DNA of 64,000 nucleotides from a virus (taxonomy: Duplodnaviria > Caudoviricetes): positions 96,001 through 160,000 of the IMG/VR virus record IMGVR_UViG_3300037255_000025; one strand, written 5' to 3'. Under the pieces are notes generated by a model. It saw only the letters and a program-made list of their open reading frames with translations, ran no database searches and was not told where the DNA came from. A program made the translations under genes and the position numbers. Within the stretch, counting starts at the first letter, position 1, and every line of letters begins with the position of its first letter. Below are positions 5,528-62,766 of this stretch, piece by piece.

Positions 5528-6081
5528 AGACGAGGAAACGACTCTTGTGCGACGTCGACGGCGTGCTGGCCGACTTTGCGTCCGCCGCGACGGCCGTGGC
5601 GGTTCGCGTTCTCGGGATGCCGTTCCCTGCGAACGCCCAGGACGAGTGGGACATGTTCCGGCACCTCCAGCCGGAAGATCGAGCCCGCGTGTACGAGGCT
5701 CTGCACGAGCCGGGGTTCTGTCGTGGGCTACTGCCGCTCCCTGGTGCTGTCGAGGGAATGCGCGAGTTTCGGGGGGTCGCGGACGTGTACTTCGTTACGA
5801 GCCCCATGCAGGGCATGACGTGGACACGCGAGCGCGAGCTGTGGCTGGCCGAGCACTTCGGGGCGTCGACTCGGGAGATTATCCACACGTCCGCGAAGCA
5901 CGTGTGCGTCGGTGACGCCCTGCTGGACGACAAAGTGCAGAACGTGGTGTCGTGGCAACGCTACCACCCTGAGGGGGTCGGCATCGTGTGGGACGCGCAG
6001 TACAACCGTCGGGCTGCCGTGCTTCACCGTGCTCGATCGTGGTCGGACGTGACTTCGATTCTTGGAGGAGAACCAACATGA
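5521..6081 (+). CDS. HAD-family 5'(3')-deoxyribonucleotidase (NT5C-like)
   Basis: CDVDGVLADF, FVTSP, K...GDALLDDK, YNR motifs. Confidence 0.85.
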   Translation: MLKTRKRLLCDVDGVLADFASAATAVAVRVLGMPFPANAQDEWDMFRHLQPEDRARVYEALHEPGFCRGLLPLPGAVEGMREFRGVADVYFVTSPMQGMTWTRERELWLAEHFGASTREIIHTSAKHVCVGDALLDDKVQNVVSWQRYHPEGVGIVWDAQYNRRAAVLHRARSWSDVTSILGGEPT

Positions 6082-7658
6082 TGAAGCGAACGATCCTGGG
6101 CGGCGTACGTGTGCTCTTGATCGACGACCTGTCTCCCGAGGACTTGGCCATGTGCATGGCCCTTTACGCGCGCTCCGGCGAGAGCGTCGAGGTCCACTAC
6201 GAGAAAGTCATGAAGGCGCGGCGGCGAGCGCTCTCGAGGGCGCTGGATCCGTGGGACTACCCCAACGGCGACCCGGAGGGCGACATCGTGGACGCCGTGA
6301 TGGATGTTTGGGGCGACAACCACCCGACCGCGCGCGCGGAGAAGCTCGGGAAGCAGTACGTTGTGGGGTACGGACACCGCAGCATCGCGGACAACGGGTA
6401 CACCGCACTGTTCTTCGAGGGCGTGTCGATGCTGGCCGCGAAGGCGATCCAAGACACGCCGCTGTACAACGGCCAGGAGATGTCCTCGCGGGCGGTTGAC
6501 TGTGGCGAGCAGCCCTACGTCGATCCGGTCGGTACCCCGGAGTCCCGCGCGGTGTTGGAAGGATGGCGCGCGTTGTACCGGCGCTGCTTGCTGGCTGCCG
6601 TGGACGAGACGATGGTGCGTCACCCGCGGCGCGAGCCCGAGGAGGACTTGGGCCAGTACAACCGCGCGGTCAACATGCGCGCGTTTGACGTCGCCCGGGC
6701 GATGCTGCCTTTCGGGTGCGCGACCCAGGTGGGTTGGAGCGGGACGCTGCGCCACGTCGGCGAGCGCCTCGGGGTCCTCAAGCACCATCCGAGCGCGGAG
6801 GTGCGGGCGCTCGCGGAGGTCGCGATCGAGCTGTGCCACGGGCGCTACCCGGGGTCCGGTTTCGGGGATGCGGTCGCGTCGGGCGTCGGGCTGCTGAACG
6901 AGCCGACCGAAGGCGCCATGGCACGCGACGCTTGGACCGCGCTCGCCGCGTCACTCGTGACCTACCGGCCGGAATTGGGTCGTCCGCTCAAGGAGAGCGT
7001 TTGCTACGACTTCGGTGAAATGAAGTCTGGCTGGCTCGGGAGCCCCGACCCCGACCTCGTGGAGGGTGAGCAGGCCTTTACCGAGAAGGTTCGTGATCTC
7101 CTCCAGTTGCGGCCGCGCGGCGCTTTGCTCCCGTGGAGCCTGACGAAGTACGGGCTGGCGGACTTTGAGTTCCCGCTGGACATGGGGTCCTGGCGCGACC
7201 TCCAGCGGCAGCGAGCGATGGTGGTGCCGACGCCGCTGCTCACGGCGGACCTCGGGTTCGAGCCGTGGTACCTCGACCAGTTGCCGGCACCCGGCGGCGA
7301 CAAGCGCGCGGGGAGCCTGGGGGACATCGGCGCGGAGGTCACGGCGTTGCTCCACCGGGCCAAGGCCGTGACGGACGACCCCGTGGCGCGGCAGTATTAC
7401 TTGCCGCTGGGCGCGAGGGTCCGCGCGCGCGTCTCGGCAGGTCTGCCGGGGCTCGTGTACTTCTTGGAGCTTCGGACGGGCAAGACCGTCCACCCGACGC
7501 TCCGCGCCCGGGCGCTCGAGATGGCACGTGCGTTCCGCCGGGGGTTTCCGGACGTTGCGATCCACGTTGACGAAGACCCGGATGGTTGGAGCCTGCGCAG
7601 GGGTGCCGCAACGCTCGCGGAACGCGTTAAGGTGGTTGAGTCAACGACCCCTCTCTGA
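6078..7658 (+). CDS. thyX: FAD-dependent thymidylate synthase, tandem-domain ThyX/Thy1 type
   Basis: YVVGYGHRSIAD, QEMSSR, FDVARAMLP, RDLQRQR, YFLELRT...HP. Confidence 0.8.
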   Translation: MMKRTILGGVRVLLIDDLSPEDLAMCMALYARSGESVEVHYEKVMKARRRALSRALDPWDYPNGDPEGDIVDAVMDVWGDNHPTARAEKLGKQYVVGYGHRSIADNGYTALFFEGVSMLAAKAIQDTPLYNGQEMSSRAVDCGEQPYVDPVGTPESRAVLEGWRALYRRCLLAAVDETMVRHPRREPEEDLGQYNRAVNMRAFDVARAMLPFGCATQVGWSGTLRHVGERLGVLKHHPSAEVRALAEVAIELCHGRYPGSGFGDAVASGVGLLNEPTEGAMARDAWTALAASLVTYRPELGRPLKESVCYDFGEMKSGWLGSPDPDLVEGEQAFTEKVRDLLQLRPRGALLPWSLTKYGLADFEFPLDMGSWRDLQRQRAMVVPTPLLTADLGFEPWYLDQLPAPGGDKRAGSLGDIGAEVTALLHRAKAVTDDPVARQYYLPLGARVRARVSAGLPGLVYFLELRTGKTVHPTLRARALEMARAFRRGFPDVAIHVDEDPDGWSLRRGAATLAERVKVVESTTPL

Positions 7659-10606: not shown

Positions 10607-10632
10607 TCGCACCGCGGGGTAAGGTGGACGAA

Positions 10633-11436
10633 GTGAGCATCCTATCTGACAGCGCGGTCCTGGTCGCCATGGACCAAAAGCGCATCGTGATCGATCCGTT
10701 CGACCGAGCGCGCCTGGGGTCAAACAGCTACGACGTTGCGCTCGGCCCGCGCCTGCTGGTCTACGAGACCGAGGAGCCGATCCTGCGTCCGGATGGCCGC
10801 GTTTTCTTCCCGGGCGCGCCGACCATCCTGGACGTCCGAAAGCAAAACCCGACGATGACGGTCGACATCCCGGAGTCCGGGATCGTCCTGCACCCCGGGC
10901 AGCTCTACCTGGGCTCGACGATTGAGCGGACCGAGAGCCACGACTTCGTGCCGGTGCTGTGTGGCAAGAGCAGCCTCGGTCGGTTGGGCCTTTCCGTGCA
11001 CGTTACCGCAGGATTCGGGGATGTAGGATTCTGCGGGGCATGGACGTTGGAGCTGATGGTCGTGCGCCCGCTCCGCATCTACGCCGGCATGCCGGTGGCG
11101 CAGATCGCCTGGCACACCGTCGAGGGTTTGGTTCTGCGACCGTACGGGTTCAAGCCGGGGGCGAAGTATGCGAACCAGTCGGCGGACCCGGTGGCGTCGG
11201 AGATGTGGCGGAACTTCGACGGCCTGAAGCCTGACGAGTGGCGACCGACCCCTAGCCGCGACCTTCCGCCGTTTAAGCTCAAGCCCGACGAGCGATCACA
11301 GCGCTGGCGCGACGCCGAGGCCCTGTGTGGTCCAGGCTACTGCCCACCCGACGCGCTCAAGATCATCGAGGAAGAGCAGGCCGCGTACGACGCCAAGCTG
11401 TCCGCAGTAAACCTCGACGGTGTGGGGCGGCCGTGA
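10633..11436 (+). CDS. dcd: dCTP deaminase
   Basis: ILSD, NSYDVALG, GKSSLGRLGL, TAGFGDVGFCGAWTLEL, GMPVAQI, KYANQ. Confidence 0.9.
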   Translation: MSILSDSAVLVAMDQKRIVIDPFDRARLGSNSYDVALGPRLLVYETEEPILRPDGRVFFPGAPTILDVRKQNPTMTVDIPESGIVLHPGQLYLGSTIERTESHDFVPVLCGKSSLGRLGLSVHVTAGFGDVGFCGAWTLELMVVRPLRIYAGMPVAQIAWHTVEGLVLRPYGFKPGAKYANQSADPVASEMWRNFDGLKPDEWRPTPSRDLPPFKLKPDERSQRWRDAEALCGPGYCPPDALKIIEEEQAAYDAKLSAVNLDGVGRP

Positions 11437-16768: not shown

Positions 16769-17988
16769 AGATCCTCCGAGCGTACAAGACCGAGCTGGAC
16801 CCCACGGTCTCCCAGACCGAGCAGCTCCTACAGCACGCCGGTTGCGCTCGCTGGGCTTACAACTGGGGTCTCCGAAGGAAGATCGAGTCCTACGAAGCTA
16901 CGGGCAAGAGTCCGTCCTGGGTGGATCTCAACCGCGAGCTGAACGTGATCAAGAAGCTCCCCAAGGAAGCCGGCGGGGTCCCGTGGATGTACGAGTCCTC
17001 GAAGTGTGCCCCGCAGGAAGCGCTCCGAAACCTTGATCGAGCCTTTGAGGGCTTCTTTCGTCGGTGTAAGAGCGGCTCGAAGCGGAAAGGCTTCCCTCGG
17101 TTCAAGTCTCGTAAGCGGGGCATCGGTAGCTTCAAGTTCAGCGGAACGATTCATGTAGAAGAGCGACGGGTTCAGCTTCCCCGTCTCGGGAAGATCAAGC
17201 TCAAGCAACGCGGGTACCTCCCGACCTCGGGGGTGAAGATCCTCTCAGCTTCGGTCTCGGAGCGAGCGGGGCGGTGGTTCGTTTCGATCCAGGTTGAACA
17301 GGGGCTACCGGATCCCGCACCCAAGCCCACGTCGGTTCTCGGGATCGACGTTGGGATCAAGAATCTCGGGGTCACCAGCGAAGGCGAGGTCTTCTCCAAC
17401 CCGAAGGCGCTCCTGGCAGCGCAGAAGCTTCTCCGAGCGCGTCAGAAGTCTCTCGCGAGAAAGACCAAAGGATCGAACAACAGGAGGAAAACGGCCGCTA
17501 GGGTCGCCCGTCTACACGCTAGGATCTCCAATATCCGGAGGGATTCGATCCACAAGATGACGACTGCGATCACCAAGCAGGCGTCGGTTCTCGTGATCGA
17601 GGATCTCAACGTCCTTGGGATGCTGAGAAACCACTGTCTCGCCCGGTCTCTGTCGGATGCCTCCCTCGGGGAGATCCGCCGGCAGCTCACCTACAAGAGC
17701 AAGTGGCGCGGGGTCGAGCTTCGGGTAGCGGACCGCTTCTATCCAAGCAGCAAGAGGTGCTCGGGGTGTGGAGCGGTCAAGGTCTCGCTCTCGTTGGCCG
17801 AGAGGGTCTACCGATGCGAGCTTTGTGGTCTCGTGATCGATCGAGACCTGAACGCTGCCCTCAACTTGAAAGATTTGGCCGGGAGTTCCCCGGTGCAAGC
17901 CTGTCGCCCTGGAGGCTCTGGTGCTGCTCTTACGAGCGGTACGAAACCTCTGGTTGGGCAGGAACCGAACCGGGAGGCTTCCTCGTGA
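16765..17988 (+). CDS. tnpB: TnpB RNA-guided nuclease (IS607/IS605 type)
   Basis: AYKTELDPT..HAGCARWAYNWGL; GIDVG, IEDL, DRDLNAA RuvC triad intact; CSGC/CELC zinc finger. Confidence 0.93.
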   Translation: MKILRAYKTELDPTVSQTEQLLQHAGCARWAYNWGLRRKIESYEATGKSPSWVDLNRELNVIKKLPKEAGGVPWMYESSKCAPQEALRNLDRAFEGFFRRCKSGSKRKGFPRFKSRKRGIGSFKFSGTIHVEERRVQLPRLGKIKLKQRGYLPTSGVKILSASVSERAGRWFVSIQVEQGLPDPAPKPTSVLGIDVGIKNLGVTSEGEVFSNPKALLAAQKLLRARQKSLARKTKGSNNRRKTAARVARLHARISNIRRDSIHKMTTAITKQASVLVIEDLNVLGMLRNHCLARSLSDASLGEIRRQLTYKSKWRGVELRVADRFYPSSKRCSGCGAVKVSLSLAERVYRCELCGLVIDRDLNAALNLKDLAGSSPVQACRPGGSGAALTSGTKPLVGQEPNREASS

Positions 17989-46969: not shown

Positions 46970-49783
46970 TTAGTCGGGCGAGATCACGCGCGCTCCGACG
47001 GAGCCCGCCTGGATCGCGTGTTGAATCGCGCACTGGCGCGCGAAGCACATCGCGGCGATGCGGTCGGGTGTGTGGGCCGCGGGGTCGTAGCTGAACAGGT
47101 TCGACAGCCACTCGCTGGTCTCGCGGTCGCGCTGCTTGCCGTCGTGACCCGTGGGGATGATCCACTTCTTGTTCATCATCTCGACCGCCACGGCCTCGAC
47201 GACGAATTCGAGTGACGGGTTGACGCCCGAGCCGGTCCGGTAGGGCACGACCGTGATGGCGCTGCGTCGGCTTAGCATGTCCAACATGCCCAACTGCGCC
47301 CCGACGGACTCGACCATGACGATCGACCCGAAGCGCTCGGCCGCGCTCTCGACCTTCGCGATCGTGTCGGGGCTGGTCCACCGGCCCGCCTCGACCTCGA
47401 GCACCCGCCGGTCCCCGTTGGGCATGACCGCGATCGTGAAGATGCATGATAGGTCCGCCGCCGCCTTCTTGGAGAACGCCAAGTCCACGCCCGTGTAGAT
47501 CCCGATGCGGTCCAGCGGACCCTCGGCGTGGTCCCCGAGGAGCCGCGCCGACTCAGCGGCAAGCTGCTGGTCGGCCCAGTCAGGGTGTCGCTCGAGCAGC
47601 TCATCGAACAGGTCCCCGGCCGAGTGACACGGGCGCAACCCCTCACCGCGCGCGCAACAAGCGTCCACCCACTCGCGCTTGAACCGCAAGCTCTCGTCGT
47701 CGCGCGCCTGGCACAACAGGGCCCGCGCGAACTCGAACGGCCCCATGTCCATGCGCTTCTGCTCGATGCGCTTCGGGGTCCACCGCTCGGGCCAGGCGAC
47801 GACGCCCTGCTCGTCGTAAACCGGGAACCGGTACAACGCGAAACCCGGCTTCTTGGAAAGCCGGTGAACGAGGTCGTCCGGGTGCCAAGCGTTACTGAGT
47901 ACAACCACGCGGGCCGAGCCCGTGAGCCGGCCCATCAGGGTCGCCTGCACCCAGTTCCATAGGTGGTCGCGCGGGGTCTGGGTCCGGGTGTTCTCCGAAT
48001 CCAACACGTCGTCCAGGATCAGGTCGTCGATGCGGGCGCCGTGGATGTTGCCGAAGATGCCCGTGGCCTGGACGCTCGGGTCCTTCGCGAACACGGTCCG
48101 CTCGACCGTGAGCTGGTGCAGGTTGAACGGCATCCGGACGTCCTTGGACCGGACGAGGTTCGGGAAGACCTCGTGTAGCTCGTCGGACTGCTGAATGTAC
48201 TGCCCGATGCTCCGGACGATCTTCTGGGCGAGCTGGCTCGTCTTGGTGACGATGACGACGCGGCGGTTGGGGTTGCGCCCCAGGTTCCACAGCGTCCGAC
48301 CCACGGACATCTGCACGGTGTTGTGCGTGACGATGTAGTCGCGGCCCGCAACGTACGTGCAGTCCGGCGAGGCCTCCGGGTCTACCGCGATGCAGCGCAT
48401 CGGCACCGTGTCGACCCGGTCGATCGCTACAACGCACCGATACGTCACGCGCGCGCCCCGCGCCGAGACCTCGCCGGTCTCGTGCATCGCTCGCTTCCGC
48501 GGAGACCAAAAGACGGGGTCGTGACTCGTGAAGCACACGCGCCAATTGGGCCCCATGTCCTGCCCGTTGAGCGTCGCCCGCTCCGTCGCGATGGTCGCCT
48601 TGATCCCGAGAGACCGCGCTAGCTCCAACACCGAGACGGCCAAGCGCTGCGTCGTGCTCGAGAATTCTACCCGTGCGCCTGCCGCCGACCCGTCGGTGTC
48701 GAGTAGTCCCGCGAGCAAGTCGCGCCGCTGCTCGACGGACCCGATGAGGTAGTCGGCCGGAACGTGCTTGTCCTCGAGCACGCCAACCTGCCGAAGCTTG
48801 TCCCGAAGACCCAACGCCCTAACGCCGCGCCGCCCGCCGCCGATCGTCACCGTTACCGCGTTCGAACCCCTCTTGTCGTACGGCCAAACGCTCACCGGCG
48901 GGAGCCCCAGAAGCTCGTGACACCGGTCGGCCACCGCGCGGTCCTCACCGTTGAACGTGACCGTAGCCTTGCCGACGGACCCGTTCCCAAGCCAGACCCC
49001 CAACACGTAAGGCGGCACCAGGTACGCGCGCGCCGGGTATTCCACCGGCGCCGTCAGCGGGATCCTCCAGTTGTAGAGGTCGTACCGCGACCCGTCGGCG
49101 CGTTTAGCCCCAGACCGCCGCGTCAAGCCCGCGTCGATCATTTCCTGCGTTGTCACGACGCGCCAACCGTCCTCCGAGAGTTCAGCTCGACTCGCGGCTT
49201 TGCGACGTGCCGCGCTCGCGGCCAAGCCATCGAGGAAAGCCTGCGACGGCGGCCGCTTCAGCTTACTCGGATCAGTGCGACGAGGTCGCTGTACCCGGCC
49301 GGTCTTTTCCGACGAGAGCCGGCCGACATCCGCCAAGTTGCGTGCGACCCAGCGGTGCTCGTCCGACGCCACGATCGAGGCCCCGTCGTCAAACGTGAGC
49401 CGGTAGGTGACGTGGTCTAGCTCGACGGGGCCCGCCCACGTCACGCGACACGCGCGGCCGTTGCGCCCGAAGACGACGTCGCCCGCAGCGAGGTCCCCCA
49501 TGGTCCGCCAACCACCCGGCGTCGGGACCGGCGTGTCGACCGCGAGGTGCTTCCCGCTCTCAATCGCCGCAAGTATGAGTAATCGTTCATGTTTATCGAG
49601 AAGACCATGCCACGCGACGTGCTGCGGCGCGTTCGTGATGCGCTTGCCCGTCGACTCGTCGCGCAAGACGAACTGGTTGAACGCGACCGCGTTCGTCCGG
49701 GCCCGGACCGCAAGATTGCGCAGGACCTGATGGCCGACCGCGCTGTCGCGCGCGACCACGTGTTCTTCGGGCCAGTCAGCCAC
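46970..49783 (-). CDS. terL: terminase large subunit containing an intein
   Basis: AAIESGK/T Walker A split by the intein; GARIDDLILDDV Walker B; NAWHPDDL; WPERW; GVDLA, MVES, HTPDR nuclease domain. Confidence 0.92.
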   Translation of the reverse strand: MADWPEEHVVARDSAVGHQVLRNLAVRARTNAVAFNQFVLRDESTGKRITNAPQHVAWHGLLDKHERLLILAAIESGKHLAVDTPVPTPGGWRTMGDLAAGDVVFGRNGRACRVTWAGPVELDHVTYRLTFDDGASIVASDEHRWVARNLADVGRLSSEKTGRVQRPRRTDPSKLKRPPSQAFLDGLAASAARRKAASRAELSEDGWRVVTTQEMIDAGLTRRSGAKRADGSRYDLYNWRIPLTAPVEYPARAYLVPPYVLGVWLGNGSVGKATVTFNGEDRAVADRCHELLGLPPVSVWPYDKRGSNAVTVTIGGGRRGVRALGLRDKLRQVGVLEDKHVPADYLIGSVEQRRDLLAGLLDTDGSAAGARVEFSSTTQRLAVSVLELARSLGIKATIATERATLNGQDMGPNWRVCFTSHDPVFWSPRKRAMHETGEVSARGARVTYRCVVAIDRVDTVPMRCIAVDPEASPDCTYVAGRDYIVTHNTVQMSVGRTLWNLGRNPNRRVVIVTKTSQLAQKIVRSIGQYIQQSDELHEVFPNLVRSKDVRMPFNLHQLTVERTVFAKDPSVQATGIFGNIHGARIDDLILDDVLDSENTRTQTPRDHLWNWVQATLMGRLTGSARVVVLSNAWHPDDLVHRLSKKPGFALYRFPVYDEQGVVAWPERWTPKRIEQKRMDMGPFEFARALLCQARDDESLRFKREWVDACCARGEGLRPCHSAGDLFDELLERHPDWADQQLAAESARLLGDHAEGPLDRIGIYTGVDLAFSKKAAADLSCIFTIAVMPNGDRRVLEVEAGRWTSPDTIAKVESAAERFGSIVMVESVGAQLGMLDMLSRRSAITVVPYRTGSGVNPSLEFVVEAVAVEMMNKKWIIPTGHDGKQRDRETSEWLSNLFSYDPAAHTPDRIAAMCFARQCAIQHAIQAGSVGARVISPD
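48320..49549 (-). mobile_element. class 3 intein with LAGLIDADG homing endonuclease (410 aa)
   Basis: HLAVDTPVPTP block A; EHRW block B; MRCIAV block F; IVTHN/T block G; LGVWLGNG and LLAGLLDTDG. Confidence 0.9.
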
Positions 49784-50615
49784 GGAGCCTCCGCAGGACC
49801 TCGGCGGCGGCCCACCAAGCAAGCACACCGCCCACGCGGCCCCCGCCGGTCGCGACCACGATACCGGGCGACGCCTCTCGCACGGTGGGCTCGGGCAGGA
49901 CAGGGCGCATCCCCCAGATTGAACCACGATCCTCAAGCGTGCCCACAGCTTCTTGGAGCGGACCCAACGCCCGCACGCGCATTTTCTCTGTGTAGTCGTG
50001 CGCGCGCGATGGATCGCGCTCCAAAGTCTCGCCAAGCCGCACGACACCCAACCCCCACGAACGCGCCGCGTAGGCAAAGTACGACGTCACCGGGACCAGC
50101 ATCGTCCGTGCGGGCGTTCGCTCCGCCTTGAACAAGAGACCGCGCCCGCCGAGCGCCTCGACGCCCACGAGGGCAAGCCCGCTTGCGTTCAGAATCTGGT
50201 CCGTCCAGACGCCCGCGGCGAGCACAACAAGCCCGCCCTCGACAACGTCGCCCCCCTGGAGGTGTACGCGGCCGCGCTCGACGCGCGTGACCTTCCCCGC
50301 AGCCCGCTCTGCGTAGAGCGCCAAAACGTCCTCGGGCCAGAACGTCGCCCAGTCCAACCGTGCCTTGCGTCCGACGACATCGGCACCGTCGAAGTCAAAA
50401 ACAGCCCCGTGTTGCCGTCCGAGCGACTCGGCTGCGCGCGCTCGCTCGGCCCAAAGGCCCTTGTACCAAGAGCGCGCGTAATAGCCGCTCGCCGCTCGTG
50501 AGGCCGCGCTGGGCTCCGCCGAGTCGATCAAGGTAACAGACGCGCCTGCGTCGGCCGCGACCCGCGCGATAGCGGTCCCCCAGAAGCCGCCGCCCACCAC
50601 GACGAGGTCCTTCAA
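49776..50615 (-). CDS. FAD-dependent oxidoreductase (DAO/glycine oxidase-like)
   Basis: VVVGGGFWG, ASRAASG, VVLAAGVW, WGMRP, ATGG. Confidence 0.85.
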   Translation of the reverse strand: MKDLVVVGGGFWGTAIARVAADAGASVTLIDSAEPSAASRAASGYYARSWYKGLWAERARAAESLGRQHGAVFDFDGADVVGRKARLDWATFWPEDVLALYAERAAGKVTRVERGRVHLQGGDVVEGGLVVLAAGVWTDQILNASGLALVGVEALGGRGLLFKAERTPARTMLVPVTSYFAYAARSWGLGVVRLGETLERDPSRAHDYTEKMRVRALGPLQEAVGTLEDRGSIWGMRPVLPEPTVREASPGIVVATGGGRVGGVLAWWAAAEVLRRLRG

Positions 50616-51505
50616 AGCCCCACCAGCCTTCCGGTGTCCCGATAGACCGACTTCAGCACGGGCCGGACGCCAGACCAGCCCATCGCCTCGCCGCGGTAAC
50701 GGGCGGGGAACGAAGCGGCGCGCGCAGCCCACCATACGGGGCCCAGGTTGTCGCGTACCAGCGTCTCTTGCTGTTCGTCGATGTCCTTGCCCAGGTAGTA
50801 ATTCCCGCGGCACAGGCTGTTGTAATCGCACAACGCGGTCTCAAGCTGATCGAGCGCGTTGAGCCCCGCGCCGCCGTCTTGGGCGCGCTTGAGCAAGTCG
50901 TGCTGGCGCTGCGGGTCGCAGCACTCCTGCCAGGTCATGCCCGTGAGCCGCACCATCCCGGGGATCGGCCCCGCGGTCTCGCCCAACTTTGAGCCGATGT
51001 CGGGCGCCGTGATGGGCAGCCCGTGAACCGACTTCAACAAGTCGGCCCACTTGTAGCTCGCCCAAGGTCCCGCGTTCGGTACCGCCTCCAGCGCCGTCCG
51101 GACCTTCACCCAGCCCTCTTCCGGCGAGCCGCCCCGGGCGAGACCCGAGACCCAACCGTCGAGCGTCGCGGTGCCCACGGCTTCGAGTACCCCGTTGAGG
51201 AACGCCGCGGCTTTGGCTCGGCCAGCGTCGCCCCGGACGCCTCGACGCTCGATGCCGGTGGGCAACACCGGAAGCCGCGCAGGATCTATGGGCTCCGGAA
51301 CGGGGTACACGAGCCCGACTTTTGCGGCGCTTCCGAGCGAGTACCAGGCCAAGTACAGGAGCGTCCGCCAAAGGCGGTCGGACTCCGGAAGATGCTGGTA
51401 GACGCGCGCCAACACGGGGTACGTCGGGTCCAGGTCACCCGACTCGACCTGCCCGCGGGAGAACCGGCAAAAGTCTCGGAACGAGTCGCGCCCGTGCAGC
51501 GTCAT
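50612..51505 (-). CDS. amino acid:DNA transferase (aGPT-PPlase2/AADT, HhH glycosylase fold)
   Basis: DLDPTY, ERRG, GPWASYKWAD, LETALCDY, G.YY.G.DI.E. Confidence 0.8.
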   Translation of the reverse strand: MTLHGRDSFRDFCRFSRGQVESGDLDPTYPVLARVYQHLPESDRLWRTLLYLAWYSLGSAAKVGLVYPVPEPIDPARLPVLPTGIERRGVRGDAGRAKAAAFLNGVLEAVGTATLDGWVSGLARGGSPEEGWVKVRTALEAVPNAGPWASYKWADLLKSVHGLPITAPDIGSKLGETAGPIPGMVRLTGMTWQECCDPQRQHDLLKRAQDGGAGLNALDQLETALCDYNSLCRGNYYLGKDIDEQQETLVRDNLGPVWWAARAASFPARYRGEAMGWSGVRPVLKSVYRDTGRLVGL

Positions 51506-51942
51506 GGGAACAGGTAGCAGCACAGGGCTCGGCGCTGATCGCTCTTGGCTCGCGCGCGCCCCATCAAGACGCCCCCGAGGCTGACGTAGAACGCGTTGCT
51601 CGCTAGGTTGGTGGCGTCGGTCTTGAGTTCAAGAGGTCGAGGCATAGAACCCACCAAGGCACGCGCGAACCCTTGACGCCGCGCCGCGGGCAGGACTCCA
51701 ATCTCGCCCAGGACCGCGACGCCGTCGCGCGCCCGGACTCTGTAATGGGCGAACGCCGCACCCTCGACACCCACCCAGTGCTCGCGTGCGACCTTGTGGG
51801 GCGTCGACGTGCGCGCTTTCTGATAAACGTACCAGGCGCGCGCCCCCACGACGAACCAGGACCCGATGTCCGCCTCGACCGAGGTCCAGACACGCTTGAG
51901 CCACTCGGTGTCGGTGGGCTCGAGCCCACGAACAACCGTCAC
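51502..51942 (-). CDS. GNAT acetyltransferase
   Basis: IGVLPAARRQGFARAL; N..SNAFY..LG. Confidence 0.85.
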   Translation of the reverse strand: MTVVRGLEPTDTEWLKRVWTSVEADIGSWFVVGARAWYVYQKARTSTPHKVAREHWVGVEGAAFAHYRVRARDGVAVLGEIGVLPAARRQGFARALVGSMPRPLELKTDATNLASNAFYVSLGGVLMGRARAKSDQRRALCCYLFP

Positions 51943-52892
51943 GCGTCAGACTCCTCTGGCTCAACAACCTGGGGCTCGTCCTCCTCGTCCTCTTCGAGCG
52001 GCCCGCCGAGGGCCCCACGGAGGTTCTTCGCGCGCTCCCGCTCCTCCGCAGGGCTCAGGCAATCGAGCATGCCAGTGCGGAAGTAGAAAACTACCGAAAT
52101 CCGCTCGTGGCCCCCGTGGTCTGGGTCGCCCGCGGGGCCGACGGCGCCGTGTATGGGCGTGTTGCCGTGGACCTCGTGCGGGTCGAACGCGATGACGTCA
52201 CGGTCCTGGAGATCCACCGCGACGCCGAAGCGCGGGAATACCAATTCGCCCCCGCGATAGCTACCCTGACGCAAGACGCTGATGATGCCGAACCCCTCGG
52301 GTAGGTCGCCTGCGTCGCGATGGCAACCGCCAGCGAAGGTGTTGTTGACCGTGAGGGTCGTGAAGGGCGTGCCGGGGACCACGTACGCCGGGTGCGTCTT
52401 GGCGGCCGCCACCATTTGAGCCGCGTACCGGTCCGGCGCGACCGACTCGAACACCCGCGCGACCTGCTGGACGTATGGAAAGCACGCGGCCCACTCTTCC
52501 GGCCGCTCCATCGAGGCCGCGCAGGCCCGACAGTACGGGATGCGCGCGTAGCGGTCCGACGAGCCTACGACGGCCGACGCTACAGGTTGACCACCAATGT
52601 TCGTGCGAGAAAGCTGGCCCGACGCCAAGACACGCTTGTTGCGACCAGAGGCGCCGAAGTGCCCACGGTTGTTGGTCTTGCGGTTGCGAAGCCAGTGAAG
52701 GAACGGGTAAGCGGCGTCCGCGGCCTCGCGGTTCACGGCGGCGCGCCGGAGCGTCAACAGGCGCTCGCCTGACGGCTTGTAGACCGTGCAGTCGCCCTCG
52801 GCCTTCAGGACGATGTCCTGGGGCAGCATCCGGCGCCCCAGCATGGCCTCAACCTCTGCTGCGGGCCGCTGCCCTCTGAGCTGTACGATCAC
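51939..52892 (-). CDS. TET/JBP-family 2OG-Fe(II) dioxygenase
   Basis: TPFTTLTVN, HRDAGD (HxD), GG.LVFP, HGNTPI, RISVVFYFR. Confidence 0.85.
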   Translation of the reverse strand: MIVQLRGQRPAAEVEAMLGRRMLPQDIVLKAEGDCTVYKPSGERLLTLRRAAVNREAADAAYPFLHWLRNRKTNNRGHFGASGRNKRVLASGQLSRTNIGGQPVASAVVGSSDRYARIPYCRACAASMERPEEWAACFPYVQQVARVFESVAPDRYAAQMVAAAKTHPAYVVPGTPFTTLTVNNTFAGGCHRDAGDLPEGFGIISVLRQGSYRGGELVFPRFGVAVDLQDRDVIAFDPHEVHGNTPIHGAVGPAGDPDHGGHERISVVFYFRTGMLDCLSPAEERERAKNLRGALGGPLEEDEEDEPQVVEPEESDA

Positions 52893-53632
52893 GCTTCCCC
52901 GGGGAGCCCCGCGACAGCCTGCGCAACCGCGGCCAACACGGCCTCCGTGACGTTCGGCGTACCCCAGGCGGCGTTGAGCCGCTGGCATTCCGCCAAGAAC
53001 TTCGGCTGCGTCGTCGAATCCAGGTAGAGCTGCACCATGCGAGTCTGCGCCACCCCCGCGTCAGGCGTGTCGCTACCCTGGTGGAGGTTCTGCCTCGGCT
53101 CGTCTTGCTCGCCCAGCGCAGGGTTTTCACCGTCACCGACGGTCGACACCTCCATGGGCGCGACCGCCAGCATCTTCATCAGCTCCTCCTCACCGAAGCC
53201 GAGGTCGATCGCGCTCAGGGCCTCGCCCCCTTGGTCAAGGCCGCGCAGCAAGTCCTCCAGCTTCGTCGGGTCCCACTGGCCACGCTTCTGGTTCATCTTG
53301 ACCGTGAGCTTCTTGGCCTCGGCCTCGGTCAAGCCGTTCAGGAAGACCATCGGACCGGACTTCAGCCCCAACTCGGTCGCGGCAGCCCAACGGTGCTCCC
53401 CGTCTACAATCAGGTCACGCTTCGCCCCGGTCTCGTCCGTCCCCCAGACAAGCAGCGCCTGGGACGCGAGCCAGCCGTCCTCGAGCAGGCCGTGCTTCAG
53501 GCTCTCGGCCTGGGCGGGCGTCATGACGTTCGGATTGTACCCGTTGGGCTTGACGCTCTTGAGGGGTCGCATCACGACCTCGCCCACGACCCGGGCCTTC
53601 TTCTCCACCGCGGGCTCTTGCTCGACGCTCAT
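52889..53632 (-). CDS. ParB/Srx N-terminal-domain protein
   Basis: KPNGYNPN, IVDGEHRW, MNQKRG. Confidence 0.8.
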   Translation of the reverse strand: MSVEQEPAVEKKARVVGEVVMRPLKSVKPNGYNPNVMTPAQAESLKHGLLEDGWLASQALLVWGTDETGAKRDLIVDGEHRWAAATELGLKSGPMVFLNGLTEAEAKKLTVKMNQKRGQWDPTKLEDLLRGLDQGGEALSAIDLGFGEEELMKMLAVAPMEVSTVGDGENPALGEQDEPRQNLHQGSDTPDAGVAQTRMVQLYLDSTTQPKFLAECQRLNAAWGTPNVTEAVLAAVAQAVAGLPGEA

Positions 53633-56526: not shown

Positions 56527-57039
56527 CTATCTGGGTTCCCTCCCACACGGCCGCCAGACGACGACGACGCTCGCGAAAAACCCGCTGGCTCGGTACGGCC
56601 CCCCGGTCAGGAAGCGAACGCGGCCCCGGATGTACCGGACCTCGGCGTGACCGATCACGTCCTCGTGCCACCACGCCAGGTCCGTCGATGCAGGCAGCAG
56701 GCCGACGACGAGCGCGCCGCGCGCAGCCTCGTTGCGAGCCTTCCTCGTCCAGGCGTAGACCTCGCGCCCGTAGGGCGGATTCATGAAGACCCTCTCTCCC
56801 GACCAACTCGCCGAGAGCCCGTCCGACGCCTCGTCGAAGTAGCGCGGACACTTCGCCGTCTGGGTGGTCGCGCAGGGGTCGAGCGTGAAGGCGAACTCCG
56901 CGTGAAGCGGGTCGAAGACCTCCGGCGGCGTCTCCCAATGCCGGCCATTTCCGTTGTACCGCCCATTGTTTTTCGCGCGCGCTCCGCCGAGTACCGCGGG
57001 GTTGTCGGTCGCGGCGATAGTTCTGCGGTTCGCACTCAT
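56527..57039 (-). CDS. phage DNA N6-adenine methyltransferase (Dam family)
   Basis: WETPP..F, FTLDPCA, FMNPPYG, LLPASTD..W, GRVRF. Confidence 0.88.
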   Translation of the reverse strand: MSANRRTIAATDNPAVLGGARAKNNGRYNGNGRHWETPPEVFDPLHAEFAFTLDPCATTQTAKCPRYFDEASDGLSASWSGERVFMNPPYGREVYAWTRKARNEAARGALVVGLLPASTDLAWWHEDVIGHAEVRYIRGRVRFLTGGPYRASGFFASVVVVWRPCGREPR

Positions 57040-57476: not shown

Positions 57477-57516
57477 CTTGAGGCCTCCGCCGGTCCCTTA
57501 CCCCCCGCGGGCCCCG

Positions 57517-60500
57517 TTAGTCGAAGTTGATGCCGCCTGCCTTCATCGCCTTGAACAGGCTCTCGCGGTCTTGGTACCCGTAGGTCTTACCCTTGTACTG
57601 GACATCGTGGTCCTCCTTGGGCAGCACCAGGCCGTTGTTGTGTCCCGGCCCCGCGATCATCTCGCGCTCGTGCTTGTAGGTTGAGGAGAACGTGCCGTCG
57701 TCCAGGACCTGGTCGAAGGCGGTGTGGTCGATCGGGCACTTCCACCGGAGCAACACACCATTATGGCCGGCGAAGAAGTCCTTGGAGTGCTTCTCTCCCA
57801 TCGACCAGCTCGCCAGCTCCGCGTGTTTCTTGATCGTGACGGTGCTGACGGTGTCGTCCTTCCAAGCCTTGGCCATCTCGATGGCGGTCTCGGGCTCGTA
57901 CTGCATGCCCCGCGTGAGGTCGAAATGCGTTGGGGCCTGGGCGTCCTTCACGCCCACATGCTCCAGCATCGCCTTCCACCGCGCCGCCCGCGTCTCGACC
58001 GCCGCCGCCATCGTGGCCTTGGTGTTCGGCAAGACCGGCTGCCGAGGCGCGCCCTTCTCGGTCACGTCCGCGAACGCGGCGTAAACACGTCCGTGGGCAC
58101 CGCCGTCGGAGTGGCCCTGCGCGGTCCACTCCTTAACGATGCTCTTGATCGCGTCGTGGGTCGCGCTTGAGAGCCCGACCCCCTTGTTGACCGCGGCGAT
58201 GGCTTTGTTTTGCTTCGTGGAGCTGACCGGTAGCTCGGCGAGCGCCGCGGCAACCTTGTCGTGGGCACCGCCGTCGATCGCGTTCTTCAGGCTCAAGACC
58301 TTCTCGGGCGGCGCGACCGGCTTGGGCTTCGACGCCTCGTACGCGTCGCTCGCCTCCTTCAAGAGGCGCCCGCGGGTCTCCAGCATCTCGACCACCTTGG
58401 CGTGGTCCTTGGGCGCGAGGTCCGGGATGCGGTCCTGGACGTACTTGGTCCAGCCGCCCGGCGCGGCCGCGAGCTTCGTGATGCGCTCGACCTGTTGCCG
58501 GAAGCCCGGGGCCTCGAACGCGTTCTTGACGCCCGCGGCCTCGAGCACCTTCGCGTACTGGGGCGCGACGGACTTGTCGAAGCTGCTCGTCAGCTCTCCG
58601 ACCTCGAGCTTCCCGGGCTTGTCACCGCCCTGGGCCTTGAACAGCAACACGCCGCCGTTGTCGACGCGCGCGATCGAGCCGTCCGGGAGCTTGAGGACGT
58701 TGTCGCCGCTATACCCGATGACGTCCCGGTTCGCCAAGAAGACGTCGGCGGCGAACCCCTGGGCGACCTCGCGCGCGTCGCCCTTCGATGGCGACAGCCC
58801 CAGCGGCAAGCCCCCCGGGAGGATCGTCGACGCGTACAGCGTCTTGCCCTCGTGCTGGAAGACTTGGCTCTCCGGCGCCTTCACGCCCAGGTCGTTATAA
58901 AGCTGGTTGGCGAGGTGCTCGACGTGGGCCTGCGACGGGTTCGCATACTCCTTGATGTAGCGCTGGACGCCGTCGGTCCCGAGCCAGAAGCCGCTCTTGC
59001 CCAGGGCGTTGCTCCCGGCGGCGCCGCCGGTCTTGGTACCCAGGACGGTCGTGCCGACGCTCTTGACGGGCGGGGCGTAGTCCCGGCTGAGCAGATCGGG
59101 CTGCTTCGCCAGCTTGGGCCCCAGCTCCGCGAGGATCTTCTTGTCGCGGTCCATGTTGAGAAGCCCCGCGGCGTCCTTCAGCGTCGTGAGCTTGACCGCT
59201 TGGGTCTCGGCCATGCCGCCGGGCGGCGCCTTCAGGCCGTCCCGAGGGTCACCGCCGACCCGCTGGGCGATGTAGTAGCGGGTCGTGCTGACGCTGCCCT
59301 TGTAGTCGCCCATGAGGCCGACGATCCGCACCTTCAGCCCGCTCTCCTCGTGGACCTCCTTGAGCGCGTTCTGCTGCGGCGTCAGGCTCTCGCCTGCGTC
59401 CATCTTGCCCTTGGGCCATGTGTTCTGCGCACCACCGAAGTGGCCCTTGGGCTCGTAGATCCACATGCGCCCGTCAGGCTCCATGACGATGCAGCCGGTC
59501 GAGATGTGCGACCCGGTCGGCATCGGTCCCTCGCCGACCTCAACGTCCTGGGTGTGCTTCCAGAAGCCCCCCGCCTCGGAGTTCAACGGCACGCCGTTCA
59601 GCGTCGTCGGCGCTGGCGGTCCGAGAGCGATGCCATCCGCGGAGACGCCCTTGTCCCCCCAGGCGCACAGTGCCTTCGGGTCCCCCAACGGGTTCGGGGG
59701 CTCCGGGGGCGACACCACGGGATCGGGCGGCGCCGGGGCTGCGACCTTCGCCGCATCGGCCTCGGCCCGGAGCGCCGCCTTGATGGCGGCCCCGTTGGCC
59801 TCGTTGTGCGCGTTGGCGGCGTTCACCAAGGCGTCGACGCCCGCGAGCCCGTGCTTGCCGTTCGTGGCGGACTCGGTCTTGATCGCGTTGACCAGCGCCT
59901 CGCGCGCGGTCTCGTGCGCGTCGGCGGCGGCCCGGTAGACCTCCGGGGTCTTCTCCAACTCCGCCTTGGCGGACAGTCTGTTGGCGTCGCGGCTGGCGTT
60001 GATCGCCGCGACCATCGCGACCTCATGGGCCGCGTGTTCCGGCTTGATGTCGCCCGCGCCCTTGACCAGGTAGTTCTTGCCCGCCCGGGCGTGAAAGTCC
60101 TTGGCCCGCTGGGCCGCGGCCGCGGTCATCTCGAGCTTCTTGAGCGCCTTGGCGTGCTGCTCCGGGGGCAGCGTCTTGAGCGTGGCGTCGATCTTCTTCA
60201 GCAGCGCCTCGTGGGCCGCGGCCGTGATGACCTTGCCGGCGACGACCTTGCCCAGCGCTTCGGCGTTCTGCGCGGCCTTCTTGGCCCCGGCGATGAACTT
60301 GCCGTGCTCGTCGCGGATGACCGTAGATTCGTCGAAGTCGCCCGCCTTCTCGACCGCGAAGCTCAGCTGCACCGGGGCCCACGCGGCGCGCAACGCGGCC
60401 TTGGTAACCTCGGGGTCAAGCGGGGGTGCGTTCGGTACGGGTGCGCCAAGTACACCGCGAGCGCGCGCCAGCGCCTTGAACAACCGGTCACCGGACGCCT

Positions 60501-60825
60501 CCGGGGGCGCCGCCTCGTGGACCGACCTGGACGCCGTGTTGTGCGCCGCGGTCTTCTCGAAGCGAGCCCCGACGAGCGCCCACGCAGCAGCCCCCCGCGC
60601 GTTCTCGGCTACGCCGGGCCCGTCGTCCGGTTTAGCCTCGGCGGGTGCCTGCTGGGCCTTCGCGACCGTTTGGAACGCCTGCGTGACCGCGGCCCACACG
60701 GTGTCGCTCAGGGCCTTCTCGACCACCGCGCGGGCCGCCGGGTCCGCCGCGCTCAACGCCTCCTTGGCCTGTGCCAACGCGGCGGCGATCTTGGTCTGGG
60801 CTTCGCTGGCGTCCATCTCGCGCAC
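57517..60825 (-). CDS. polyvalent protein: helical N-terminus + Nudix hydrolase + PI3/4K/HipA-like kinase + ADP-ribosyltransferase-like domain
   Basis: PKGKMDAGES..NALKEVHEESGL Nudix box; GSN..YIK..E.LA..LY...G..P, D.FLANRDVIG..DN..RVDNGG.L kinase; TRG..SWS..EREM ART triad. Confidence 0.75.
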   Translation of the reverse strand: MREMDASEAQTKIAAALAQAKEALSAADPAARAVVEKALSDTVWAAVTQAFQTVAKAQQAPAEAKPDDGPGVAENARGAAAWALVGARFEKTAAHNTASRSVHEAAPPEASGDRLFKALARARGVLGAPVPNAPPLDPEVTKAALRAAWAPVQLSFAVEKAGDFDESTVIRDEHGKFIAGAKKAAQNAEALGKVVAGKVITAAAHEALLKKIDATLKTLPPEQHAKALKKLEMTAAAAQRAKDFHARAGKNYLVKGAGDIKPEHAAHEVAMVAAINASRDANRLSAKAELEKTPEVYRAAADAHETAREALVNAIKTESATNGKHGLAGVDALVNAANAHNEANGAAIKAALRAEADAAKVAAPAPPDPVVSPPEPPNPLGDPKALCAWGDKGVSADGIALGPPAPTTLNGVPLNSEAGGFWKHTQDVEVGEGPMPTGSHISTGCIVMEPDGRMWIYEPKGHFGGAQNTWPKGKMDAGESLTPQQNALKEVHEESGLKVRIVGLMGDYKGSVSTTRYYIAQRVGGDPRDGLKAPPGGMAETQAVKLTTLKDAAGLLNMDRDKKILAELGPKLAKQPDLLSRDYAPPVKSVGTTVLGTKTGGAAGSNALGKSGFWLGTDGVQRYIKEYANPSQAHVEHLANQLYNDLGVKAPESQVFQHEGKTLYASTILPGGLPLGLSPSKGDAREVAQGFAADVFLANRDVIGYSGDNVLKLPDGSIARVDNGGVLLFKAQGGDKPGKLEVGELTSSFDKSVAPQYAKVLEAAGVKNAFEAPGFRQQVERITKLAAAPGGWTKYVQDRIPDLAPKDHAKVVEMLETRGRLLKEASDAYEASKPKPVAPPEKVLSLKNAIDGGAHDKVAAALAELPVSSTKQNKAIAAVNKGVGLSSATHDAIKSIVKEWTAQGHSDGGAHGRVYAAFADVTEKGAPRQPVLPNTKATMAAAVETRAARWKAMLEHVGVKDAQAPTHFDLTRGMQYEPETAIEMAKAWKDDTVSTVTIKKHAELASWSMGEKHSKDFFAGHNGVLLRWKCPIDHTAFDQVLDDGTFSSTYKHEREMIAGPGHNNGLVLPKEDHDVQYKGKTYGYQDRESLFKAMKAGGINFD

Positions 60826-61253: not shown

Positions 61254-61856
61254 TCATGTGGTTGGGTTGGGCTGGGCCGTGTCGAGGAACCCGATCAGCT
61301 CCGACAGCAGGTCCTGAACCGGCTGGGAGGCGTCGAACTGGTGCCCAAGATTCGGCCCAGTGCCCCAAGCCTCCGCAAACCGGCGGGACTTCGTCGCGCG
61401 GCCCAGCATCCAGTTGGGGTTCTGGTTCGAGCCCCGGGCGGCGCGCCTCTCCGCCAACAACGGCTCAGGCGCGACCAGGTGCGCGACCGCGAGCGTGGCC
61501 CCGGGGCCCGGTCGACATTGGCCCGCTACGGAGCTGCGGTCGAAGAACCGCGCGACCTTCTCGAGGCTAAACCGGTCACCGTCGAAGACGGTCAACGGGC
61601 AGCCGTGGAGCGCCGGGTCCGCGGCCCATGAGTCCAGCGAGGCCTCGACGCCGTTGTACGGGACCGTGTCGGCGCCGTCGAACGTTCCGCCCGTGTAGTG
61701 TCCCGCCGCGACCATAGCGCCCGGCACGACGGTCCACTTGGGCTTGGGCGTGCCATAGCGAAGTTGACCGGAGTCGAGCCAATCGAGCAGCGCCCGAACC
61801 AACGTCGTCTTGCCGCACCCCGGCGCACCAACGACCCATAGAATGGTGGGCGTCAC
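61254..61856 (-). CDS. P-loop nucleotide kinase of the type linked to DNA base-modification loci
   Basis: WVVGAPGCGKTT; GHY..GTFDGADT; FDGDRF; RRAARGSNQN..W..GR.TK. Confidence 0.75.
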   Translation of the reverse strand: MTPTILWVVGAPGCGKTTLVRALLDWLDSGQLRYGTPKPKWTVVPGAMVAAGHYTGGTFDGADTVPYNGVEASLDSWAADPALHGCPLTVFDGDRFSLEKVARFFDRSSVAGQCRPGPGATLAVAHLVAPEPLLAERRAARGSNQNPNWMLGRATKSRRFAEAWGTGPNLGHQFDASQPVQDLLSELIGFLDTAQPNPTT

Positions 61857-62086
61857 GACCACGACCGCGACCGCGACCACAACCCCGACCCCGACCGCGA
61901 CCCCGACCCCGACCACGACCACGACCACGACCTCGACCACGACCGCGACCGCGACCCCGACCGCAACCGCGACCCCGACCTCGACCCCGACCACGACCCC
62001 GACCGCGACCTCGACCGCGACCCCGACCACGACCCCGACCGCGACCTCGACGACTCGAAGCCTGCTCGCATGACCGCCGCGTTCAC
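61853..62086 (-). CDS. RS/SW/SG dipeptide-repeat peptide
   Basis: MNAAVMRAGFE followed by ~33 S-x dipeptides; GTGA overlaps at both ends. Confidence 0.7.
   Translation of the reverse strand: MNAAVMRAGFESSRSRSGSWSGSRSRSRSGSWSGSRSGSRLRSGSRSRSWSRSWSWSWSGSGSRSGSGLWSRSRSWS
61854..62052. repeat. degenerate 6-bp tandem repeat (CGACCN)
   Basis: Read directly from the sequence. Confidence 0.9.
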
Positions 62087-62433: not shown

Positions 62434-62497
62434 GTCGTTTCCTTTTCGTTGTCTAGCCCGGACAAGCCTCCGGACGCCGGTTCCCATGTCAGCTCCC

Positions 62498-62766
62498 TTA
62501 CCCCGAGCCCGACGGCTCACCCTGGGTCCTCAGGACCGTCGGCTCGTACCCGACCTCGGCAGCGTACGCGGTCGCCGCCTTGCGGCCCGCGACCTGCCCG
62601 TCGCGGTAGCCGCGTTGGTACGCCTCGGTGTCGGCGCCGCGCTCCACCCTCATCGCGCGCCTCCCGGCACCGTCCTGGAACCCGCGGCAGTACAGTTGGT
62701 ACAGCTCCGCCGGTCGCCAGGCTCGCGGCGCGGCGTCAGTCAGCCCTTGGGCCAGTCGACGCGTCA
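62498..62766 (-). CDS. hypothetical protein
   Basis: Y.RGF.DG / YQRGY.DG repeats. Confidence 0.45.

Follow-up and report, generated by a model that had tools for sequence, protein, structure and literature searches.

A predicted post-replicative thymidine hypermodification pathway encoded next to the large terminase gene of an uncultured phage

The uncultured phage has a genome of 169,748 bp with 67.5% GC, which is complete according to CheckV, and the portal protein of no cultured phage is more than about 30% identical to its own. Five genes on the minus strand form an operon within the 64-kb stretch of this genome that was analysed (the window), in which no tRNA genes were found. In order, these genes encode a ParB-like protein, a Tet_JBP 5-methylpyrimidine dioxygenase (5mYOX), a GNAT acetyltransferase, an amino acid:DNA transferase (AADT), and an FAD enzyme, and they are followed by the large terminase gene (terL). 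The coordinates in the initial annotation were confirmed, and its claim of five coupled genes running into terL was borne out by Pfam calls and by the 4-base stop/start overlaps read from the sequence (GTGA, GTGA, ATGA, and TTGA). Profile searches for Tet_JBP, aGPT-Pplase2, DAO, and Acetyltransf, which that annotation had proposed, all matched at the genes it named.

The terL gene (46970..49783, minus strand) begins with a GTG and shares 8 nt with the end of the FAD enzyme gene; another possible start codon is located 16 nt downstream. Its product matched Terminase_6N and termin_lrg_T7 together with LAGLIDADG_3, Hom_end, and Hint_2, indicating a large terminase with an intein-like insertion. 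The homologue in the syntenic locus L006 has 530 aa and is 61% identical, with about 400 aa missing. Stop/start coupling of the operon to the large terminase is conserved in unrelated phages. At the nucleotide level, the sole blastn match of the whole operon was an 89-nt patch in the Mycobacterium phages Phelemich and Reprobate. No copy of the phage promoter motif AA-N15-GTAAGG was found upstream of the ParB gene, the nearest minus-strand copies being at 57496-57518 and 62496-62518, and scans for sigma-70 promoters and terminators gave results at chance level.

The dioxygenase (317 aa, 51939..52892, minus strand) matched Tet_JBP (PF12851) with 81.3 bits and an E-value of 6e-23. No variation is seen in the family alignment at the iron ligands of the HxD...H motif (H191, D193, and H242) or at the 2-oxoglutarate arginine R264. 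The AF2 model (pLDDT 86.7) is predicted to adopt a TET-like jelly-roll fold, with human TET2 as the top Foldseek match and CcTet and NgTET1 also among the top matches. The overlap with the ParB gene requires GTG 52892 as the start codon, not ATG 52844. This choice is supported by the VQLR motif that it adds at the N-terminus, which is conserved in homologues, and by the folding of the added residues with a pLDDT of 96 in the model. ParB-dependent 5mYOXs are distinguished by a C-terminal extension past the last cysteine conserved in both subclasses. Here, the invariant C278 precedes a 39-residue extension with conserved E284 and K289, in which a helix is confidently modelled at residues 281-295. 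Fold, residues, extension, and ParB neighbour all suggest that this protein belongs with the ParB-dependent T-dioxygenases (clade C1), and we predict that it converts T to 5-hydroxymethyluracil (5hmU) in DNA. Such phage enzymes have been reported to make 5hmU from T, and those tested acted on no more than roughly 35% of T in E. coli, with a sequence preference (O'Toole et al., PNAS 2026, PMC13229309). In public phage records, TET genes of this kind are mislabelled as queuine tRNA-ribosyltransferase.

The ParB-like protein (247 aa, 52889..53632, minus strand) is a predicted activator of the dioxygenase. Its match to ParB_N (PF02195) scored 24.5 bits, just below the cut-off of 26.3, and several PHROG ParB families matched with E-values down to 1e-18. 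In the AF2 model (pLDDT 83), the N-terminus takes the ParB/Srx nucleotide-binding fold, after which come a helical segment, a disordered linker (159-193), and a C-terminal domain of two helices; the first and the last of these parts are confidently modelled. Foldseek matched this model to ParB, Noc, and KorB, and helices 122-155 align with part of these proteins beyond the nucleotide-binding domain; no HTH family of Pfam was matched. A ParB gene was present in 78 of the 83 loci with a homologous TET gene, and lies directly upstream of it in 47. Complex prediction, in which ParB and 5mYOX were each supplied as a 25-row alignment, gave scores of 0.04, 0.38, and 0.25 (mark 0.32), which speaks neither for nor against binding.

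The AADT (297 aa, 50612..51505, minus strand) matched the Pfam family ADDT / aGPT-Pplase2 (PF18724) with 29.7 bits (cut-off 26.2) and phrog_6364 with an E-value of 1.5e-25. It is 40% identical to gp3 of Mycobacterium phage Phelemich and matched PDB entry 8z2m, the glycinyltransferase gp46 of phage PaMx11, to which its identity is 24%. All 12 active-site residues of gp46 are kept (D24, Y47, Y51, E92, W146, K150, E243, T244, C247, K261, D262, and E265; numbering checked against the structure paper of gp46), covering the metal, base-clamp, phosphate-pocket, and glycine-contact roles. These kept contacts and the neighbouring lyase suggest glycine as the most likely donor, although the contact residues may also persist in transferases that use other amines.

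The FAD enzyme (279 aa, 49776..50615, minus strand) matched DAO with 61.6 bits and aligned end to end with PDB entry 8z2o (query 3-278, chain 4-286, E 3.4e-14). By these matches it is a homologue of PaMx11 gp47 (NGTO), the flavin-dependent lyase whose structure was solved along with that of gp46 (PMC11472151). Among the residues whose roles were named in that work, the FAD-binding glycines of the GxGxxG motif (G9, G11, and G14) do not vary in any of the ten family members. Of the three residues that form the base cage and bind the carboxylate (W51, R242, and K268), W51 and R242, the latter carboxylate-binding, are likewise invariant in all ten. K268 of gp47 is replaced by arginine in nine of the ten, including the enzyme in the window. 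HMMER pairs the wedge/base-reading residues Y180 and Q182 of gp47 with Y and A, a pairing that is unreliable as the multiple alignment is gapped here. The FAD enzyme gave no tblastn match in the phage collection even at E = 1, and a search for related loci using this protein alone returned no relatives; its homology was seen by profile and PDB searches instead.

The GNAT (146 aa, 51502..51942, minus strand), a predicted 5-NmdU N-acetyltransferase, matched Acetyltransf_1 (PF00583) with 23.8 bits (cut-off 20.7), and the alignment reveals the acetyl-CoA motif RRQGFA. With the GNAT of L006 it shares 60% identity. Against PaMx11 gp48 it displayed 29% identity over 82 aa, within the GNAT core only (E 5e-4 in a five-sequence database). 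The gene content of the related loci was scored by six-frame profile searches, which detected the lyase in eight of 83 and identified a GNAT in three of these eight. At least three of the eight (L007, L008, and L053) show no GNAT. Counting the window, GNAT and lyase occur together in four independent contigs (with L006, L016, and L023), although the GNATs of the window and L006 are barely alignable with those of L016 and L023.

The initial annotation saw no canonical 5-hmU DNA kinase in the window and left unassigned the kinase at 61254-61856 that it mentioned. This calls for correction: a TET-linked P-loop kinase (Ploopntkinase3) is encoded at 61254..61856 on the minus strand, and we predict that it acts as a 5-hmU DNA kinase. 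Its score for PF18751 was 26.2 bits as a protein and 28.5 bits in frame, around the cut-off of 27. It alone in the genome also matched a profile of TET-linked P-loop kinases from which it had been left out (92.9 bits, E 2e-28, profile positions 3-181 of 185), and it displays the Walker A motif GAPGCGKT. The gene lies 7.6 kb upstream of the operon within the same co-directional gene block. L006 has its kinase in the same displaced position, and the kinase is inside the operon in L007, L008, L016, L022-L024, L053, and Phelemich. The biochemically characterised 5-HMUDKs include PaMx11 gp49 and M6 gp54. Only the P-loop region aligns with gp49 (25% over 68 aa), which matches AAA_33 and Zeta_toxin, not PF18751. 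The literature consulted contained no biochemical work on PF18751 proteins. In 2013, Iyer et al. reportedly defined two families that adjoin phage TET/JBP genes, aGPT-Pplase and the P-loop nucleotide kinases. In public phage records, the kinase carries the wrong label of small terminase or adenylate kinase.

Genes for ordinary dTMP synthesis are present, as the initial annotation had stated: the window encodes ThyX (6078..7658, plus strand; PF02511) and a dCTP deaminase-like protein (Dcd; 10624..11436, plus strand; PF22769, 118 bits). It had also reported that the window lacks a C5-methyltransferase, and this holds for the complete 169,748-bp genome (PF00145 search). The genome-wide search for a hydroxymethylase that it proposed revealed no ThyA-like gene or dUMP hydroxymethylase (PF00303) in the complete genome. 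Likewise, no radical SAM protein or amidoligase was found in the complete genome, and no ThyA-like gene in the flanks of the 83 related TET loci.

Based on these findings, we postulate that the phage probably encodes a complete pathway for thymidine hypermodification that operates entirely after replication and leads from T to 5-acetylaminomethyl-dU (5-AcNmdU). ThyX and Dcd would supply the phage with normal dTMP, and its genome would be replicated with T. The ParB-like protein would then activate the Fe(II)/2-oxoglutarate dioxygenase, which would convert T into 5hmU in the DNA polymer, and the kinase would convert 5hmU into 5-phosphomethyl-dU (5-PmdU). The AADT would swap the phosphate for an amino acid (most likely glycine) attached through its alpha-amine, resulting in N-alpha-glycinylthymidine (N-alpha-GlyT). 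The gp47-like flavin lyase would cut the N-C-alpha bond to create 5-aminomethyl-dU (5-NmdU), whose amine would be acetylated by the GNAT. The steps from 5-PmdU through GlyT and NmdU to AcNmdU are published biochemistry (PMC8989533, PMC11472151). In a comparison with the PaMx11 cluster, the best match of each window protein was its functional counterpart. For the phage itself we infer the chemical steps, the choice of glycine, and the acetylated product from the gene content. The modified base likely shields packaged DNA from host nucleases. The mechanism put forward in the initial annotation, a post-replicative handle on T followed by PaMx11-like finishing, agrees with the data at every point that sequence can address. 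The new base that it held possible is not what one would expect first, since the kinase is in the window and the expected product, 5-AcNmdU, is already described.

It is unlikely, if not negligibly so, that the pathway is of this class with a different chemistry, using an amine other than glycine, another acyl-CoA or intermediate, or an unrelated GNAT, and ending in 5-NmdU or an undescribed base. Identities to gp46 (24%) and gp48 (29%) are low, AADTs specific for serine and putrescine exist (PMC8989533, Table 1), and both the lyase-bearing loci that show no GNAT and the divergence among the GNATs fit such a reading. Against it, every glycine-contacting residue of gp46 is retained, and the conserved carboxylate-binding arginine of the lyase fits an N-alpha-linked amino acid. 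Moreover, the GNAT is translationally coupled between the TET and AADT genes and recurs with the lyase in four contigs. A more speculative and rather improbable extension is that another amino acid or acyl group yields an undescribed thymine derivative, with coupling to terL timing or targeting the modification to DNA awaiting packaging and ParB guiding the dioxygenase towards the DNA of the phage. Such a derivative is conceivable because the enzymes downstream of the dioxygenase share only 24-29% identity with their PaMx11 counterparts and because the kinase belongs to a family for which we found no biochemical study.

Two further readings were considered. We hold it very unlikely that only a few sequence-defined thymines are marked as a regulatory or packaging signal, rather than the genome being protected in bulk. 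O'Toole et al. found an NTR/YTY preference and partial conversion and considered an epigenetic-like role (PMC13229309), and tight coupling between operon and terL is seen in this phage as well as in Phelemich, MakoManhole, and L006. Known thymidine hypermodifications, on the other hand, replace much of the T and block nucleases (PMC8989533), and the sequence gives no sign of a specific target site. This reading bears on extent and role and is compatible with the same chemistry. It is extremely unlikely that the substrate is 5mC instead of T, with the downstream enzymes decorating 5hmC. The characterised clade A and B phage 5mYOXs oxidise 5mC (PMC8256090), and some T-dioxygenases also act on 5mC in vitro (PMC13229309). 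The lack of a C5-methyltransferase in the complete genome argues against this substrate, as do the ParB linkage and C-terminal extension, which are features of the T-dioxygenase subclass, and the kinase, AADT, and lyase, which are known from thymidine pathways only. The initial annotation took 5mC to be the only substrate of characterised phage TETs, a view that no longer holds now that ParB-dependent T-dioxygenases have been published (PMC13229309).

If the predicted route to 5-AcNmdU is correct, a compact set of six genes turns T in finished DNA into 5-acetylaminomethyl-uracil. No modified nucleotide pool would be needed; thus, the whole route could be tested by co-expression in E. coli. It would also be a natural case of a T-dioxygenase feeding PaMx11-type finishing enzymes, and the operon enzymes may serve for the enzymatic labelling of T in DNA. 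The concept is already published, and the gain is one more well-defined example, not a new principle.

Among known systems, the ParB-dependent T-dioxygenase pathways of clade C1 resemble this locus by their features. They too have a ParB-like gene directly upstream of one for a C-terminally extended Tet_JBP protein and no C5-methyltransferase; a P-loop kinase and an AADT accompany the pair, which adjoins the terminase. The partners named in the clade C1 paper are GATases, kinases, and AADTs, with GNAT appearing only in its domain survey; its main text does not mention the flavin lyase, which is present in the window operon (PMC13229309).

PaMx11 gp46-gp49 comprise a homologous AADT, flavin lyase, and GNAT, as well as a P-loop kinase, with the same predicted intermediates and end product. 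In PaMx11, 5hmdU is made before replication by the ThyA-like hydroxymethylase gp51, whereas here a dioxygenase would act on DNA and no such synthase is encoded. The PaMx11 kinase is of the AAA_33/Zeta-like type, unlike the PF18751 kinase of the window, which is displaced by 7.6 kb, and the gene order differs. [quoted passage not shown] This domain is also FAD-dependent and cleaves a glycine adduct on a C5-methyl uracil, but it acts on U34 of tRNA, not on DNA. The FAD enzyme has a weak NCBIfam match to MnmC, limited to the FAD-binding N-terminus, and homology between gp47 and MnmC was reported by Lee et al. (PMC8989533).

Cultured actinophages carry similar modules at their left ends, namely Mycobacterium phages Phelemich and Reprobate, Gordonia phage MakoManhole, and Rhodococcus phage Tonitrus, with AADTs 35-40% identical to that of the window. 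Phelemich encodes, in order, ParB, TET, AADT, an FAD oxidoreductase, Ploopntkinase3, and TerL. A GNAT was annotated in none of the three modules examined, in contrast to the window, and the Gordonia and Rhodococcus modules have a protein of about 290 aa with no assigned function at the position of the lyase. Over partial alignments, the actinophage TETs share only 27-35% identity with that of the window, which has closer relatives among marine and T4-like phages. The authors who described Tonitrus already term its module a thymidine hypermodification system (PMC11955845). The initial annotation proposed a new hybrid route, a claim of novelty that does not stand. The replacement of the dUMP hydroxymethylase by TET_JBP beside T-hypermodification genes was described by Lee et al. 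(NAR 2022; PMC8989533, section 21, Fig. 2 sequences 22-25), and the links of ParB-dependent T-dioxygenases with P-loop kinases and AADTs by O'Toole et al. (2026; PMC13229309). The route encoded here is a new example of a published kind of pathway, rather than a new system.

The source record is a single 169,748-bp IMG/VR virus record with a GC content of 67.5% and a completeness of 100% (CheckV). A gene call based on GC3 revealed a co-directional block on the minus strand of the window, from approximately 63,700 down to 46,970. The five genes that the initial annotation had described as an operon running into terL (49776-53632) lie in this block, and Pfam and PHROG matches confirmed all of them. 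They encode, in order and on the minus strand, a ParB-like protein (52889-53632; PF02195, 24.5 bits, below the cut-off of 26.3, and also matched by PHROG ParB families), a Tet_JBP dioxygenase (51939-52892; PF12851, 81.3 bits), a GNAT (51502-51942; PF00583, 23.8 bits), an amino acid:DNA transferase (AADT, 50612-51505; PF18724, 29.7 bits), and a DAO-type FAD enzyme (49776-50615; PF01266, 61.6 bits). The four junctions between them are overlaps (GTGA, GTGA, ATGA, and TTGA), and the 3′ end of the FAD gene is overlapped by a terL start. The large terminase itself (46970-49783, minus strand) is interrupted by approximately 400 aa containing Hint and LAGLIDADG homing-endonuclease domains, an insertion that resembles an intein. 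In the closest relative (L006), the large terminase is 61% identical, has 530 aa, and lacks this insertion.

For the dioxygenase, the GTG at 52892 is the most likely start codon, since the N-terminal motif gained by this choice is kept in homologues and its residues are modelled at a pLDDT of 96. The structure model of the dioxygenase (pLDDT 86.7) had its best structural matches to TET2, CcTet, and NgTET1, and the residues that bind iron and 2-oxoglutarate do not vary in the family alignment. O'Toole et al. 2026 (PMC13229309) showed that phage Tet_JBP enzymes encoded beside a ParB act as dioxygenases on T, require this ParB on double-stranded DNA, and bear a C-terminal extension. The enzyme of the window has both the ParB neighbour and a C-terminal extension, which lies beyond the invariant Cys278. 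Its ParB-like partner was modelled as a ParB/Srx nucleotide-binding fold joined by a disordered linker to a C-terminal domain of two helices. A second ParB-like gene occurs outside the window (genome positions 73979-74752, plus strand); its 257-aa product scored 71 bits with a profile of the ParB proteins that accompany TETs.

Neither a C5-cytosine methyltransferase nor a ThyA-type synthase or hydroxymethylase was found in the complete genome. ThyX and a dCTP deaminase-like protein are present, in line with the ordinary dTMP supply that had been proposed for this phage, as is a deoxynucleotidase. Likewise, no ThyA-like gene was found in the flanks of any of 83 related loci. Given these gene contents, the C5-hydroxymethyl handle has only one plausible source, namely thymine that the dioxygenase oxidises in DNA. 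A radical SAM enzyme or an amidoligase would point to another finishing route, and neither was found in the genome. ThyX (6078-7658, plus strand) is unusually long (526 aa), and its single open frame gave two distinct Thy1 matches.

The initial annotation had reported no canonical 5-hmU DNA kinase in the window, a statement that no longer holds. The ORF at 61254-61856 matched PF18751 (Ploopntkinase3) with a score at the cut-off. We built a profile from 30 kinases that other phages and contigs encode next to a TET or AADT gene, excluding the protein of the window. Of the 220 proteins predicted in the genome, this protein was the sole match, at full length (92.9 bits, E 2e-28). In related loci, the kinase lies within the operon: L008 displayed the order ParB-TET-AADT-FAD-kinase, L007 and L053 displayed similar orders, and L016, L022, L023, and L024 displayed ParB-AADT-(GNAT)-FAD-kinase-TET. 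In L006, whose TET is 76% identical to that of the window, the kinase is displaced in the same way as here, with the genes for a 210-aa protein and then a giant NUDIX protein between it and the operon. The NUDIX protein of the window (57517-60825, minus strand) has 1102 aa, of which only a central NUDIX domain is recognisable, and its L006 counterpart in the same position has 1357 aa. Directly upstream of the kinase start is a 196-bp tandem array (61856-62051) in which CGACCC occurs approximately 32 times with a period of 6 or 12; the array is in frame with the longer ORF that reaches 62030.

The finishing enzymes resemble those of Pseudomonas phage PaMx11. The FAD enzyme aligned end to end with the flavin-dependent lyase gp47 (PDB 8z2o/8z79, E 3.4e-14). 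In an alignment of ten family members, the FAD glycines, Trp51, and Arg242, the proposed holder of the glycine carboxylate in gp47 (PMC11472151), are invariant; Lys268 of gp47 is replaced by Arg, and the alignment is unreliable in the Tyr180/Gln182 wedge region. The whole-protein match of the AADT to gp46 (PDB 8z2m) was weak, and all 12 gp46 residues that the structural study (PMC11472151) places in the metal site, the base clamp, the phosphate pocket, or contact with glycine are kept. The GNAT has the acetyl-CoA motif, and its likeness to gp48 is limited to the GNAT core.

Based on these findings, we postulate that the ParB-activated dioxygenase would convert T into 5hmU, as do the ParB-dependent T-dioxygenases (PMC13229309). 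Following the reconstitution and structures of the PaMx11 system (PMC8989533, PMC11472151), the kinase would then yield 5-PmdU, the AADT N-alpha-glycinylthymidine, the flavin lyase 5-aminomethyl-dU, and the GNAT 5-acetylaminomethyl-dU. We infer every chemical step, and consider post-replicative thymine hypermodification very probable as the class of pathway; 5-acetylaminomethyl-dU as the exact end product, deduced by the same analogy, is only slightly favoured.

The gene block that holds the operon also encodes a Dam-type N6-adenine methyltransferase (56527-57039, minus strand; PF05869, 93.7 bits). In L008, a Dam gene comes just after the operon, and in L007 the operon itself includes an N6_N4 methyltransferase; the module may thus be accompanied by a second DNA modification. 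The window also encodes a 1328-aa protein that joins a DUF6094 methyltransferase-like region to a ResIII helicase domain (343-4329, plus strand), and a TnpB (OrfB_IS605 and Cas12f-like TNB domain; 16765-17988, plus strand), in whose vicinity no transposase was seen.

Metagenomes contain several hundred homologues of the dioxygenase. Among the 83 dioxygenase-bearing loci examined, ParB was present in 78, the kinase in 40, the AADT in 30, and the flavin lyase in 8, counts that are lower bounds because many loci are short. The lyase was always accompanied by ParB, kinase, and AADT (8/8). A search of the lyase-bearing loci with a small GNAT profile placed a GNAT alongside the lyase in L006, L016, and L023, as in the window. 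Public phage records, among them those of Phelemich, MakoManhole, and PaMx11, give these genes wrong names: the TET is entered as queuine tRNA-ribosyltransferase, as DpdA-like, or as SNF2 repair protein, and the kinase as either adenylate kinase or small terminase.

The initial annotation had put forward a hybrid route that is fully post-replicative. The idea is already published, since Lee et al. 2022 (PMC8989533) predicted that TET_JBP makes 5hmU in situ, and O'Toole et al. 2026 (PMC13229309) associated P-loop kinases and AADTs with the ParB-dependent subclass and demonstrated one key step experimentally. In the published text, as distinct from figures, we found no description of lyase and GNAT combined downstream of a TET. 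The window adds a complete example with clear limits, in which the finishing enzymes are of the PaMx11 type and the less common GNAT is among them. It comes from a new phage lineage of high GC content, whose portal shares approximately 30% identity with the portal of any cultured phage. Cultured phages have the same core as the window, beside the terminase at the left genome end. It consists of ParB-TET-AADT-kinase in Gordonia phage MakoManhole and in Rhodococcus phage Tonitrus, and the Tonitrus authors regard their module as a thymidine hypermodification system (PMC11955845). In Mycobacterium phage Phelemich, the order is ParB-TET-AADT-FAD-Ploopntkinase3-TerL.
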